From: a virus | Virus record (IMG/VR): IMGVR_UViG_3300028920_000026 | Coordinates: 1-64,000 of that record | Direction: 5' to 3' (one strand) | DNA length: 64,000 nt | Shown here: positions 22,459 to 26,886 of the stretch, piece by piece | Numbering within the stretch: position 1 is the stretch's first letter | Layout: the number at the start of each line of letters is the position of its first letter | Notes under the pieces: model-generated | What the model saw: the letters and a program-made list of their open reading frames with translations, nothing else | Told to the model about the DNA's origin: nothing | Databases searched by the model: none | Made by a program: the position numbers and the translations under genes

Positions 22459-22656
22459 CTATCGCAGCACCTTCACCCACGGGTTCTTCGATGAGAGACC
22501 CGTGCTTGTTAGTTTACCGTTCCTAAGGATGGCGATGCGGGTGCGCTGTCGAGAAACGACCAGTGCTGGTGGTCGCAGTGTCTTTTTGGTGATCGGGCGT
22601 TCGATCAAGACGTCGCCTGGCCTGATGTTCAGGAGCTTGATGCACCTAGCCTGCAT
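22459..22656 (-). CDS. small PGD-family paralog
   Basis: 'NIRPGDVLIERP'. Confidence 0.4.
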   Translation of the reverse strand: MQARCIKLLNIRPGDVLIERPITKKTLRPPALVVSRQRTRIAILRNGKLTSTGLSSKNPWVKVLR

Positions 22657-22996
22657 TCATCAGTACCCGCTTAACGTTGTCGGAACACATGTAGTCTGTG
22701 TAGACGAATCCCTCCTGTGCAAGGAAGGTGACCCACCCACCGCTGTACATCTCGTCGTTCGGCAGTATCTTGTGGTACTCAATTGCAACAATGATATCAA
22801 GCGTTGCATCGTATGGGTCAACACAAACCATCCCGGGTTCGAGGTCGCACAACAAAACAAGCTTGGTGCTCAGTGCAATCGTACGTTTCTCAGGCACAGT
22901 ATACAAACCGATTATTTCTATCTGAAAACAACGAACGACAGACGATGCCAAATGTTGACCTTTACGCGTACCTTCCCCTCGTGGAGGAGGACGCAT
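22646..22996 (-). CDS. small PGD-family paralog
   Basis: 'DLEPGMVCVDPYD'. Confidence 0.4.
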   Translation of the reverse strand: MRPPPRGEGTRKGQHLASSVVRCFQIEIIGLYTVPEKRTIALSTKLVLLCDLEPGMVCVDPYDATLDIIVAIEYHKILPNDEMYSGGWVTFLAQEGFVYTDYMCSDNVKRVLMNAG

Positions 22997-23190
22997 AGAA
23001 CATCACTGCCGTTGTCCTTGGTATTGAATCGCTTGCCTTTCGCGTAGATGACAAGTGCCGGAGATTGATCTGCGATCGTAAACTCTGACCCATCTTCGTT
23101 GTCGTCAAATACGATCGCTGATCCGCTTTCGTATTTGACGATCAAGTCGCCAGGAAGCAACTGAGACGCTAAGGCGTACCTCATGGACAT
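22918..23190 (-). CDS. small PGD-family paralog
   Basis: 'QLLPGDLIVKYESG'. Confidence 0.4.
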   Translation of the reverse strand: MSMRYALASQLLPGDLIVKYESGSAIVFDDNEDGSEFTIADQSPALVIYAKGKRFNTKDNGSDVLCVLLHEGKVRVKVNIWHRLSFVVFR

Positions 23191-23507
23191 ACGTCAGCCA
23201 ACTCCTCCTGGAATGCTGTCACAAGATCAACGTAGTAGATGTTTTGGACTTCGATGATCATTTCAACAGCATTCATGGTGCGACCTTGATGATCGATGAA
23301 GGCAATGTCAAGTACCCTGTGCCCGAACGCGTTGACAATCCCGCCACCAAGAGATGTGGGTTCACCGAACGTCTTGAACGGTTCGTCGCGTCCGATGCGC
23401 TCTTCAACTGCAACGACGAGCATCGTTGATGGATTGTGCCCAAGCGCTCGGAATACGGTGCCGGGAACGATGAACCTCGGCTTCACCCATCCCCAACCTT
23501 TAGACAT
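23181..23507 (-). CDS. WGW/PGD-family paralog
   Basis: 'KGWGWVKPRFIVPGTVF' links the WGW and PG parts of the family signature. Confidence 0.45.
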   Translation of the reverse strand: MSKGWGWVKPRFIVPGTVFRALGHNPSTMLVVAVEERIGRDEPFKTFGEPTSLGGGIVNAFGHRVLDIAFIDHQGRTMNAVEMIIEVQNIYYVDLVTAFQEELADVCP

Positions 23508-23608
23508 GATGATCTTCTGCTTCCAATCGCAGTGCTAGTTGCGTCGCATCGGCCATACCATTCCATCGTAGCTCGGGTAAAGGTGTTATCCTGGTGGTGT
23601 TAACGTCA

Positions 23609-24202
23609 TCAATGCTTCCTGATTGAGGGCAGATGGGCAAAGAACGCGCTACCCTCGCTCATGTCGAGGTTCATCGTTTTGATCCCGTGCTGGGTGACGA
23701 CGGCGATGCGGTAGGACCTAAACAGGATGCTGGACTCGTGGGGCAGGTTGAACTTGGGCCAGAAGCCGAGCGTCGCTCCACCACTCATACCGGGTCTGAT
23801 TATCTGTTGCTTCGCGACCACGAGCCCCTGCCCAACCCTGCCTTCACGTGTCTGTTGCACGGATGCCTGTCCGATCGTCACCAGCATGCCAGGCACGACG
23901 GCGTCTCCTCTGATCCACCCCCACTGCGTTTTCGCGATGTACGAGATCCAGCTCTTTGCTCCGTATATGGGGGTCCCGTCCGCAACGTAGCGAATTTCAT
24001 CACCACGACCGTCCCTATCGAACGCAAAGTGTGGCCAGGTTTCGAGCGGATGAGAAATGCCCTCGTCAATGAGCTTCTTTACGACGTTCCTTGCTCCTGC
24101 CCTCTTCCACACCACAGTGGTCTCCAATGTAACACGCTTAGCTATATTCTGCACCTCACGAGTGGGCCTACGTGACGCGGAAGCTGTCTCCCAAAAGTCC
24201 AA
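23609..24202 (-). CDS. WGW/PGD-family paralog (long form, ~190 aa)
   Basis: 'TQWGWIRGDAVVPGMLVT'. Confidence 0.5.
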   Translation of the reverse strand: MDFWETASASRRPTREVQNIAKRVTLETTVVWKRAGARNVVKKLIDEGISHPLETWPHFAFDRDGRGDEIRYVADGTPIYGAKSWISYIAKTQWGWIRGDAVVPGMLVTIGQASVQQTREGRVGQGLVVAKQQIIRPGMSGGATLGFWPKFNLPHESSILFRSYRIAVVTQHGIKTMNLDMSEGSAFFAHLPSIRKH

Positions 24203-24752: not shown

Positions 24753-25010
24753 TCAGCCTTGTCCATTTCGAAGGACCCACAACATCCTCGGTAGGTCTGA
24801 CACCGGCCAATCAATGATTGTGCTGTCCATGCGGAGCAGACCACACATGGTTCCACGCCGCGAGAAGACAAGTGTAGGTTTTGTTTTGAAGAGCATGTTT
24901 TCATTTATAAGATCATGTTCGTTCCGAGCCGTCGTCGTCCCAACGATCACGTCGCCCGGAATGAGCTCTTCAGCGTAGACAACGACAGTCAATCGTCGAA
25001 GACGAGTCAT
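24753..25010 (-). CDS. small PGD-family paralog
   Basis: 'ELIPGDVIVGTT'. Confidence 0.4.
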   Translation of the reverse strand: MTRLRRLTVVVYAEELIPGDVIVGTTTARNEHDLINENMLFKTKPTLVFSRRGTMCGLLRMDSTIIDWPVSDLPRMLWVLRNGQG

Positions 25011-25330
25011 GCGTATGGACCAAAGAAGAACACCGTGCTGTAGTCGAACCTCTTCACACCGAACTTCACAACTAAACTTGGTTCAGTGCGTTCTGAAGCG
25101 CATCAGCGAGAGAGGTGCCTCCCCCAACACCTTATCGAGAACATTGCGATGGTCCAACGTCCAAACCATCCAATGGCACGGAATGCAACTGCTGTCAAAA
25201 CCACCAGGAGATGGTTCGTAGTGGATTGACAGTTGCTCAGTTACCTCTGATTTCAGACGCTCAAACAGTTCCAACTCGAGCTTATCAAGCTTTCTGGTTG
25301 CGTTGTATGTTATTAGTGTTGTCATCAGTC

Positions 25331-25882
25331 CTATGAGAGGGCAGCGAGCGTAGGAACATGGCAGAAGATTGCTGATGGTATTCGCATCGATTCAACGTGC
25401 ACCTCGAGGCCGTTCCTTGTCACGACGGCGACCCTCGTGCCTTCGTGCTTGTCATCGAACTTCTTGATGTTGTTTTTTTGAGTGAACCACGTGTTGCTCA
25501 TCGTACCAAACATGGTCACGCAGCGGTCGTTCAGGTTGCAAGACACGATCGACACAACCATCCCGAATCCCGACTGCCTTGGAAACCCCACGCTCACGCC
25601 GTTCAACGCCACAACTGCTCCAGGGACCAACCTGTTCGATGCGATCCACCCCCAGCCCGTTTGGCGGAGGTGTGCAGCCTTTATGCACTGTAGCTCTGTG
25701 CTCGTTGTCGTCAGCAGGCGTGTCGTGTATGCCTGCGACGTTCCATCACTATTGACGACGTAGTCAGGCCACTCGGACGTCCTCCTCCCCTGCTTGTGCA
25801 TGACAGCGAACGCGTACGGGTCCTCGTCGAACGCTTCGTTTACTCGACCTTCCGCCCCGATCCTATACGTCATCCTCGCCAT
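25331..25882 (-). CDS. WGW/PGD-family paralog (long form)
   Basis: 'RQTGWGWIASNRLVPGAVVA'. Confidence 0.5.
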   Translation of the reverse strand: MARMTYRIGAEGRVNEAFDEDPYAFAVMHKQGRRTSEWPDYVVNSDGTSQAYTTRLLTTTSTELQCIKAAHLRQTGWGWIASNRLVPGAVVALNGVSVGFPRQSGFGMVVSIVSCNLNDRCVTMFGTMSNTWFTQKNNIKKFDDKHEGTRVAVVTRNGLEVHVESMRIPSAIFCHVPTLAALS

Positions 25883-26165
25883 CTTTGATCAATGACCACG
25901 ACATTCTTGTAGTAGATGTAGAAGTTCTCGTACAAGAGATGCCAACGTTCGTCAGCATCGTAACCTCGGGTGGGCGGACAGAAACCACGAGCTTGGGTGA
26001 AAATACGTGTAGCTCGTCGTTGATTACATCAACGTACGATAGGATGACGTCGCCCGGCATCAGCGAGCTCGGGCTTATCATTGCTGTTCTCATCGCTCGT
26101 CGATCGTCGCCGTTCGTCAATCGTACCGTGTTGTCCACCATACTCCTTACGAGTGCCGCCAGCAC
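25863..26165 (-). CDS. small PGD-family paralog
   Basis: 'SLMPGDVILSYVDV'. Confidence 0.4.
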   Translation of the reverse strand: MLAALVRSMVDNTVRLTNGDDRRAMRTAMISPSSLMPGDVILSYVDVINDELHVFSPKLVVSVRPPEVTMLTNVGISCTRTSTSTTRMSWSLIKDGEDDV

Positions 26166-26367
26166 CGTGCAGGCGTCGATCGTCGATCGTCGAACACATC
26201 AGGAGGAATGGCAGCCCTTTGGTGCATTCCTCAGGAGCGATGGCAACTCCTTGGGTGCATTGTTCAGGAACAACGAACCTCACCGCGCGGAGGCAAATCA
26301 AACCCTCTCCCAAAGCTCGAACAGCAGCAGCAGGTAGCAGAACGTGGCAGAGGGGTGCCGAGCGCTC

Positions 26368-26886
26368 TCAAGGCCGGACAGCAGTCCAAGCCGAGTAGAG
26401 ACAGAGACCCGAACATCGTCCGAAGAGCTGGCGATCCAGTTCGGTCGCTCGAACCATTGGCCAGAGAGCGTCCCATAGTCCGCACCCCAGCAGTCCACAT
26501 CGACACCGTCCACACACCACGAGCCCGAGCCCAGCACCGCGCGCCAAAACACCACTCCACCTCGCACCATCCAGAGAGACCAGGCACCCAGGGACGAGGT
26601 CGGTAGACTGCACCCACCCCCACCCCGACCGCAGGGCATCGTCCCTCTTGAACTTGAGCAAGTTGCTATCGCTCCTGTTGACGTATTCCACGGCAGAACC
26701 TCCGGTGAGGACGAAGTGATCGGGCCAGGTGGCAAGGGGGCGACAGGCGGGATCATCAACGGGGTGCAACGGACACACCCCTTGGGAGGCCTGTCCGCTG
26801 CTGTCCAACCAGCAGCGGATCCTGGCACGTGTAGGTTCAGAGAGCGTTCCAAACATGTCTAAACAGCGCACCCAAAGGGCTGCCAT
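26368..26886 (-). CDS. WGW/PGD-family paralog (long form, GC-rich divergent copy)
   Basis: 'RSGWGWVQSTDLVPGCLVS'. Confidence 0.45.
   Translation of the reverse strand: MAALWVRCLDMFGTLSEPTRARIRCWLDSSGQASQGVCPLHPVDDPACRPLATWPDHFVLTGGSAVEYVNRSDSNLLKFKRDDALRSGWGWVQSTDLVPGCLVSLDGARWSGVLARGAGLGLVVCGRCRCGLLGCGLWDALWPMVRATELDRQLFGRCSGLCLYSAWTAVRP

Follow-up and report, generated by a model that had tools for sequence, protein, structure and literature searches.

In Bacillus phage G, approximately 35 copies of a zinc ribbon have been found, an expansion that was called 'unprecedented' and for which a transcription-factor or DNA-binding role was proposed (Iyer et al. 2021, PMC7824862). Here, we describe a comparable case in 64,000 nucleotides of viral DNA (positions 1 to 64,000 of IMG/VR record IMGVR_UViG_3300028920_000026; this whole stretch is hereafter called the window), in which two tandem arrays and a number of scattered genes encode one small predicted beta-barrel, in roughly 31-36 copies. 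As in phage G, what is probably a jumbo phage carries about 35 copies of one tiny domain of unknown role. However, the two expansions differ in fold and lineage, and the family in the window has no conserved metal ligands. In scale it is comparable to the zinc ribbon, which was the largest small-domain expansion of a phage found in a limited literature search.

SH3 and SH3-like domains have also been described in accessory proteins of other phages. The Nip protein of phage Phi3T, which acts in counter-defence against SpbK, has predicted SH3-like domains and is reported to form a tripartite complex with SpbK and YonE (PMC11984713). As described there, Nip has 279 amino acids, with two predicted SH3-like domains and an HU-like dimerisation domain, and is in this respect unlike the single-barrel proteins of the window. 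DUF7244 is a stand-alone SH3 domain of Drexlerviridae lysis modules (PMC13164509) and is tied to lysis cassettes. Neither the Nip nor the DUF7244 family was recovered by Pfam and PHROGs searches with the members described below.

Other small barrels invite comparison as well. The KOW proteins (NusG/Spt5 and L24) and DUF2158/YodC resemble the family in being small barrels with a first turn, hydrophobic-x-x-G-D-x-V, that is similar to its PGD turn. Among solved structures, domain I of EF-P/eIF5A comes nearest to the predicted shape; the family differs from it in having no sequence relation to it and in standing alone, without the OB domains II and III.

Members of the family and the evidence that unites them

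The motif shared by these proteins, written loosely as [LIVMFC]x[PVA]G[DMACTVE]x[LIVMFCA], has 39 matches in the codon-usage-based gene set of the window, as against 10.6 +/- 3.4 in residue shuffles (maximum 25 in 200). Its carriers are mostly proteins of 64-134 amino acids, in which the motif lies 8-45 residues from the start. A hidden Markov model (HMM) of five long members alone did not recruit the short open reading frames (ORFs; best E 0.1), and the link between long and short proteins was first visible with a motif-anchored alignment of all 32 candidates. Besides the motif, this alignment contains a hydrophobic strand 10-25 residues past PGD (L-V-V-x-V), a hairpin (h-x-h-h-h-x-x-G-x-h-x-x-x-h) and a last strand, and the long members share the same blocks (for example, 'RVAVVTRNGLEVHVESM').

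Because the candidates were initially picked by their motif, tests for circularity were run. Leave-one-out (LOO) HMMs, searched against 1163 six-frame ORFs of the window, recovered 22 of 31 members at E<0.1, with at most four non-member ORFs ranked above those. Each member was also compared with shuffles of itself in which only the seven-residue motif was left in place; 25 of 32 outscored 95% or more of these, so the similarity extends past the motif. Scored against an HMM from the short members only, the five long members gave z values of 4.5, 1.9, 4.6, 5.1 and 1.6. Furthermore, the full HMM found two members that had not been put in (58035-58307 and 54328-54522, the latter hidden beneath a mis-called longer ORF), and among the window ORFs it recruited none on the strand opposite the local gene block. 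At the DNA level, a 22-nucleotide match spans the motif in three members. An earlier note on this DNA, made from the letters alone, had let its proposal of a single family stand or fall, among other things, with the positional homology of the PGD matches; in most members the flanking hydrophobic pattern is conserved, and their motifs are thus positionally homologous.

These tests also bear on the opposite explanation, that no single family exists and that PGD recurs by chance or convergence in unrelated and partly spurious ORFs, the alignment-driven model being an artefact. Identities of 16-27%, with most pairs invisible to BLASTP, the risk of circularity in picking candidates by motif, five candidates that fail the tests and two array I members missed by the metagenome gene caller are all as this explanation would have them. 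However, 25 of 32 members are significantly family-like beyond the motif, the long members are significant against the short-only HMM, the two unselected members were found, every hit is on the strand that codes in its gene block and the shared 22 nucleotides cover the motif. For the core of about 25 members the explanation is largely refuted, and overall we regard it as highly improbable.

In total, approximately 25 members are well supported, six are probable and five are doubtful, giving 36 candidate genes that cover 10.8 kb, or 17% of the window, where the earlier note had estimated 12%. Its broader claim, of a family with more than 35 members and a single small fold, is borne out by the LOO HMMs and shuffles in the form of one small fold in roughly 31-36 copies, distributed over two arrays and scattered genes. 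We are confident that these ORFs are real genes of one paralogous family with an SH3-like fold.

Array I (22459-26886) comprises 11 minus-strand ORFs, ten of which carry the domain. Five of these form a long group that is robust by BLASTP within the array (E down to 6e-12; paralogy across the subfamily at E 1e-7 to 1e-12). The first is a frameshifted gene, 26298/26368-26886 (ORF 26368-26886), of the W-G-W type, whose N-terminal part matches 25331-25882 at E 6e-12. The gene at 25331-25882 itself, also W-G-W (180-183 amino acids; LOO E 8e-8; z 5.1 against the short-only HMM), has an N-terminal extension of about 75 residues followed by the barrel, and a database search with it matched only itself. 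The others are an AWAW variant at 24168-24683 (171 amino acids; LOO E 0.02; z 4.6 against the short-only HMM), a QWGW variant at 23609-24202 (181-197 amino acids; BLASTP to 25331-25882 E 2e-11; LOO E 2.4e-4) and 23181-23507 (108 amino acids; LOO E 0.0013; z 4.5), which is of the long type without the N-terminal extension and begins at GWGW.

The short PGD members of array I are linked weakly by BLASTP (E 0.005-0.04), and their support comes from the LOO HMMs and from z scores in the motif-fixed shuffles: 25863-26165 (72-100 amino acids, depending on the start codon; LOO E 6e-4; z 3.7), 24753-25010 (85 amino acids; LOO E 0.0018; z 4.2), 22918-23190 (90 amino acids; LOO E 6e-5; z 5.1) and 22459-22656 (65 amino acids and an isoelectric point (pI) of 12.0; LOO E 0.011; z 3.1). 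A fifth, 22646-22996 (83-116 amino acids), is borderline (LOO E 2.7; z 2.0; 7 of 100 shuffles as good), and every sequence block can be discerned in it by eye. The eleventh ORF, 25083-25325 (80 amino acids), lacks the motif, has no Pfam match at E<=1 and is not recruited by the family HMM at E<0.05.

All six peptide strings quoted for array I in the earlier note are present in minus-strand ORFs, each where the note had placed it. Its 'ten consecutive paralogs' are indeed ten domain-bearing ORFs, but since 25083-25325, which has no motif, lies inside the run, they are not strictly consecutive. Similarly, the proposed shared core of GWGW followed by PGD holds in its second half only: the short members have PGD and lack WGW, exact GWGW occurs in only three window ORFs, with QWGW and AWAW in two more, and W-G-W thus marks the five-gene long subfamily.

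Array II, on the minus strand at 53363-60136, contains approximately 15 members with LOO E values between 2.8e-6 and 0.44, except for 53817-54026 (E 4.2), which also fails the shuffle test and is doubtful. The remaining members are 53363-53698, 54328-54522, 55754-55972, 56398-56628, 56621-56863, 57415-57678, 57862-58059, 58035-58307, 58268-58492, 58629-58862, 58834-59106, 59275-59505, 59474-59695 and 59858-60136; of these, 55754-55972 is probable (HMM E 0.32; BLASTP E 0.001 to 57415). They are interspersed with a GT2 glycosyltransferase gene (54509-55576) and a few unrelated small ORFs.

Scattered members that are supported or probable lie on the plus strand at 114-398 and 3939-4235 and on the minus strand at 6205-6555, 9003-9326, 9478-9762, 12538-12849, 12825-13115 and 15461-15775. 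Their LOO E values are 0.0055, 0.15, 0.52, 0.21, 0.0012, 0.0027 and 0.05, leaving aside 12825-13115, for which the HMM E is 0.17. Three further minus-strand candidates, 4217-4522, 8182-8454 and 8435-8839, are doubtful (LOO E 4.5, 4.6 and 190). Thus, among the scattered copies listed in the earlier note, those at 114, 6205, 9003, 9478, 12538, 12825 and 15461 are supported or probable, but 4217, 8182 and 8435 have no statistical support from LOO HMMs or shuffles.

The family genes run head to tail on one strand, many of them overlapping by 4-52 nucleotides, and no upstream DNA motif common to the minus-strand blocks was found. The family HMM detected no member in the plus-strand block at 34-53 kb, and no clear member lies within 10 kb beyond either end of the window. 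Two plus-strand ORFs about 2 kb beyond the left end (L005 7444-7815 and 7745-8209), which carry 'LPGDLVELRW...GIIVNIS' and 'IEPGTMVRWW...', have weak family-HMM scores (E 0.4-0.7) and may be distant members or other SH3-like proteins.

Predicted fold and known barrels

AlphaFold2 (AF2) was given an input alignment of the 32 paralogs only, with 58629-58862 (77 amino acids) as the query. The resulting model has a mean predicted local distance difference test score (pLDDT) of 91.3 and a predicted template modelling score of 0.76, with all five models at 89-91, and contains six strands (residues 2-7, 16-19, 27-35, 47-54, 57-64 and 68-73). Such confidence obtained from paralogs alone is evidence for homology, and a pLDDT of 91 on this basis argues further against the absence of a family. 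The domain is predicted to be a stand-alone mini-domain of about 65 residues, folded as a six-stranded SH3-like/KOW-like beta-barrel. The model has the features of the SH3-like small beta-barrel class (5-6 antiparallel strands in about 60-70 residues) and the three-dimensional fold of the EF-P/eIF5A N-terminal domain (a six-stranded KOW-like barrel). In a fold search with the model, domain I of EF-P/eIF5A was the nearest solved shape; the best structural matches were EF-P, EfpL and eIF5A, and RimP, uL2 and the Tudor domains of UvrD/PcrA were also listed. A model of a long member was poor (pLDDT 58) and was not used for the fold search; in its C-terminal half the strands follow one another as in the short protein, and the first of them contains GWGW.

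Two architectures can be distinguished. The short proteins, of 64-134 amino acids, are essentially barrel only, and nothing follows the barrel in them. The five genes of the long subfamily encode G/Q/A-W-G/A-W in the first strand and a larger loop between strands 3 and 4; all but one also have about 75-90 additional amino acids at the N-terminus. Across the family, conservation is limited to P (97%), G (100%) and D (72%) of the turn that leads into strand 2 and the glycine of the hairpin between strands 4 and 5 (84%), together with alternating hydrophobic positions in the strands and, in members that have a 3-4 loop, a proline within it. Loops 2-3 and 3-4 range from 1 to 23 residues. The pI ranges from 4.1 to 12.0, with 19 of 35 members basic (pI >8) and 11 acidic (pI <6); the most basic are 22459-22656 (pI 12.0) and 55754-55972 (pI 11.2). 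No metal ligands or polar residues are conserved across the alignment, and the 19-residue Kyte-Doolittle hydropathy maximum is no higher than 1.85 in any member. Selection keeps only the residues that determine the fold; the surface, two loops and the net charge are free to vary.

The earlier note had likened the motif to KOW and DUF2158/YodC barrels. As regards shape, the comparison is apt, for the AF2 model is a KOW-like barrel, but membership in either family by sequence found no support in Pfam or hhalign comparisons. KOW (PF00467) gave no match to the ten array I proteins at E<=10, nor to the 32 members at E<=1, and the second half of KOW (G..KG..G) is absent from the family consensus. 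For EFP_N (PF08207), the best result was one of 32 members at E 0.21, below threshold. Comparison of the family profile with E. coli EF-P by hhalign gave a probability of 0.2%, and a PDB sequence search with this profile returned no EF-P and noise only (best E 0.24). Similarly, no family member matches the Pfam model of DUF2158/YodC (PF09926). A true DUF2158 gene, which the note had recognised correctly, does lie about 130 nucleotides from array I on the opposite strand (27018-27620, plus; PF09926 at residues 148-190, E 3e-9, 36.9 bits against a cut-off of 22.3); it is not a family member, and hhalign gave a probability of 0.7% for its domain against the family profile.

Two other relationships were considered and dropped: one to Hint/intein domains (the Pho RadA intein, E 0.32), because the fold search returned EF-P-like barrels instead, and one to vault-protein repeats, because the family HMM did not list the ORF of the vault gene in the window even at E<=20. 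Scans of all members against Pfam, PHROGs and NCBIfam revealed no family common to two or more of them, in keeping with the earlier description of the family as undescribed. It is thus a new family at the level of sequence, of a known fold class.

The nearest models in BFVD are uncharacterised stand-alone proteins of 60-110 amino acids from many cultured phages (TM 0.6-0.8; Foldseek probability about 1.0). They include proteins of Klebsiella phage KpS8 (A0A6H0X4E4) and Salmonella phage LPST10 (A0A1W6DXP1) and several actinophage proteins, all of the same size and predicted fold as the family; however, they share only 5-22% sequence identity with it. No comparable multi-copy array surfaced among these look-alikes in our searches, in which their copy number per genome was not examined.

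The translation-factor barrels at the head of the structural matches, with RimP, uL2 and the RNA-polymerase-binding Tudor domains of UvrD/PcrA behind them, raise the possibility that the copies bind nucleic acid, ribosomes or RNA polymerase through a classical KOW/EF-P/Tudor barrel, for example as gene-specific modulators of transcription or translation. The 19 members with a pI above 8, a few of which are very basic, would suit such regulators, as would the DNA-binding or transcription role suggested for the phage G zinc ribbon (PMC7824862). However, 11 of 35 members are acidic, down to a pI of 4.1, no basic or aromatic surface position is conserved, and there is neither a sequence relation to EFP_N or KOW nor any counterpart of EF-P domains II and III. 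In EF-P, the loop between strands 3 and 4 carries a functional, modified Lys/Arg; the corresponding loop is the most variable part of the family, with 1-23 residues and no conserved basic residue. A literal EF-P mimic is unlikely for this reason, and we consider the regulator explanation as a whole unlikely.

Age, distribution and possible roles

The family could not be found beyond its own contig. An exhaustive HMMER scan of 1.84 billion representative proteins with the long-subfamily profile returned only its own five proteins, and when 5.8 billion clusters were searched by word index, a long member and the 32-member profile each retrieved nothing but proteins of the same contig. In 50,697 phage records, tblastn of members gave nothing in frame, and megablast of 13 kb gave no match. 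One short member had a tblastn match to Klebsiella phage JIPh_Kp127 (E 3), which was dismissed as chance because it is antisense to an annotated gene, and a DNA pattern for GWGW[IV]-x6-VPG had three chance matches in IMG/VR, in non-coding frames of high-GC contigs. With about 31-36 copies here and none detected in the other genomes searched, this is a lineage-specific expansion, confined, as far as is visible, to one unsampled lineage; as no truly close relative was found, this 'lineage' may be an unsampled clade.

The expansion, for which the earlier note had spoken of rapid divergence, appears to be old rather than recent. Mean core identity is 16-27%, the highest value for any pair is 44% (22918-23190 and 54331-54522), and the nearest neighbours of members often sit in the other array, which implies that copies moved or were retained across arrays. 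The same figures rule out a recent gene 'accordion'.

Taken together, we favour, with modest confidence in the statement as a whole, an account in which old tandem and dispersed duplication, followed by deep divergence, would have given the 31-36 or so copies in one 331-kb phage-like genome, with the barrel as a scaffold and the copies as a repertoire of small binding proteins. Each copy might have specialised on a macromolecular target of its own, with host proteins, in takeover or anti-defence, as the most plausible targets. The SH3-like precedent of Nip and the zinc-ribbon expansion of phage G make this reading reasonable, and a role in host interaction or anti-defence is, we infer, plausible. 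Nevertheless, the binder function itself, which is suggested by the pattern of scaffold plus variable surface and by the location of the genes among orphan small genes, is tentative and somewhat more likely to be wrong than right. More doubtful still is its strongest form, in which the family would be a binder library on an EF-P-domain-I-like barrel, each surface neutralising a different host or defence factor, and would constitute a new takeover/anti-defence superfamily and the largest single-fold small-protein repertoire yet in a phage.

Several observations weigh against this account. The exhaustive HMMER scan covered the long subfamily only, and the search with the 32-member profile was word-prefiltered and thus less sensitive. 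Six contigs with homologues of the vault gene, from metagenomes (47-50% identity) and huge phages (39-41%), contained no family member, and the vault gene was the sole gene they shared with the window; the closest homologue (61%, on a 4.9-kb contig) was left out of this comparison. Five of the 36 candidates are statistically doubtful (4217, 8182, 8435 and 53817 fail and 22646 is borderline). An old expansion without near-identical copies is as compatible with a stable functional set as with an arms race. Finally, since the window contains no capsid or terminase gene, the designation 'phage' is drawn from window gene content.

A further explanation would give the copies a structural or assembly role in a very large virion, as decoration, internal or ejected proteins or as chaperone-like adaptors. 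Huge phages, for example those like phiKZ, carry paralogous families of virion proteins, and a major-vault-protein homologue (17518-20163) and a chaperonin (1926-3524) lie within a few kilobases of the arrays. However, a scan of the 20 larger window proteins identified no capsid, portal, tail or terminase gene, no member has a PHROGs structural-protein match above noise, such extreme variation in charge and loops would be unusual for parts of a lattice, and the family sits among many other orphan small genes. We consider a virion role quite improbable.

Tandem arrays of immunity proteins occur in bacteria, and a tandem array of divergent small paralogs in which only the fold is conserved would also be expected of a poly-immunity or antitoxin-like set, each barrel neutralising one toxin of host abortive infection or of competing elements. 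As Pfam scans identified no toxin genes or toxin-domain cassettes beside the arrays, and no member matches a known immunity family in Pfam, we think this very unlikely as a separate explanation; it largely overlaps with the binder repertoire, of which it is a special case.

Most genes of huge phages are unexplained small ORFs, and here about one sixth of 64 kb reduces to one confidently modelled fold. Viral dark matter can thereby be annotated with a new protein family, for which an HMM and a structural model now exist, and some 30 natural variants of one scaffold form a compact set that can be tested against host factors and defence systems. If the copies do prove to be target-specific binders, they would illustrate how one mini-domain can be turned, by diversification, into the toolkit of a huge phage, on a scaffold of possible interest for protein engineering.

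Genomic setting and repeats in the window

An ENA contig of 331,213 bp (ERZ27252253:k141_1101516) and Logan contigs of run SRR8554435 match the window with 100% identity. Both ends of the 331-kb contig are joined within the window: window positions 1-30240 correspond to contig positions 30240-1, and the remainder to the far end of the contig. As the window crosses this junction (at about 30240, contig position 1), the genome is suggested to be circular or circularly permuted. Small ORFs crowd the window, and most of its larger proteins belong to no known family. Among the exceptions are a UvdE endonuclease (411-1370), the Cpn60 chaperonin at 1926-3524, the major-vault-protein homologue on the minus strand at 17518-20163 (881 amino acids; MVP_shoulder E 2e-26, plus Vault_3), a MoxR-like AAA ATPase (35821-37074; phrog_1297 E 2e-48; homologues in 586 phage records) and the GT2 glycosyltransferase among the array II members. 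Directly past the right end of the window is a sugar-modification cluster (UDP-glucose dehydrogenase, DegT aminotransferase, formyltransferase and sulfotransferase).

Genes of the 462-735-kb 'uncultured phage' records LR756500/501/503 are 39-41% identical to the vault protein, of which thousands of homologues exist in metagenomes, including bacterial metagenome-assembled genomes (Myxococcales and Gemmatimonadaceae) and huge phages. The closest vault-gene carriers that were fetched resemble other large phage-like elements (RtcB, Thg1, ThyX, ribosomal L12 and Cpn10). The element is thus a huge genome, probably that of a phage.

The frameshifted long member of array I was considered separately. 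The similarity of ORF 26368-26886 to its paralogs ends after 'GLGLVV', and the expected C-terminus is found in another frame down to 26298, where it is 43% identical over 58 amino acids to the C-terminus of 25331-25882. The gene can be read in frame A (26886..26515) and, after a +1 shift within a GTGGTGTGTGG run at about 26513-26516, in frame B (26513..26298). The sequence of this region is identical in the ENA and Logan assemblies, and the frameshift could mark a pseudogene, arise from slippage (as slippage-prone phase variation) or be an assembly error common to both.

The same gene is associated with a 20-30-nucleotide repeat that consists of a Shine-Dalgarno-like AGGAGG and the first five codons of the gene (CAGGAGGAATGGCAGCCCTT; three matches, with 0.00 expected). 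Two tandem copies lie at its 5' end (26872-26915, minus strand) and one inverted copy lies past its 3' end (26193-26222, plus strand), so that inverted repeats flank a gene of about 650 bp. The arrangement may be a recombination scar or an invertible segment; no recombinase was noticed in the vicinity.

Elsewhere on the minus strand, a 31-residue stretch of gene 11404-11670 recurs about 900 nucleotides away, with 52-65% identity, in an ORF fragment at 12318-12506, which is probably the remnant of a partial duplication.

The plus-strand block has repeats of its own. The motif GG(A/G)TATACT(A/G)AGA(C/T)CATGG occurs in 14 copies (0.05 expected), all on the plus strand between 35267 and 53037 (for example, at 47645-47663, 50611-50629, 51666-51684 and 52064-52082), and it precedes no gene of the barrel family. 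In most copies, the downstream gene is predicted to start at the ATG of the motif, and a GC-rich hairpin, such as GGACCGGCACGTGCCGGTCC, lies ahead of several copies. The motif looks like a terminator-promoter cassette with TATACT as a -10-like box; as this box is only 7-8 nucleotides ahead of the start codon, leaderless or near-leaderless mRNAs would be implied. A DNA duplication of about 90 nucleotides (50153-50241 and 52575-52665; 89% identical) covers the promoter-like motif and a 5' region, and the genes that follow (50235-50567 and 52659-52985) encode paralogs of about 110 amino acids that are 30% identical over 118 amino acids. Further repeats pair 47533-47601 with 51281-51349 (77%) and 48180-48230 with 49029-49079 (76%).

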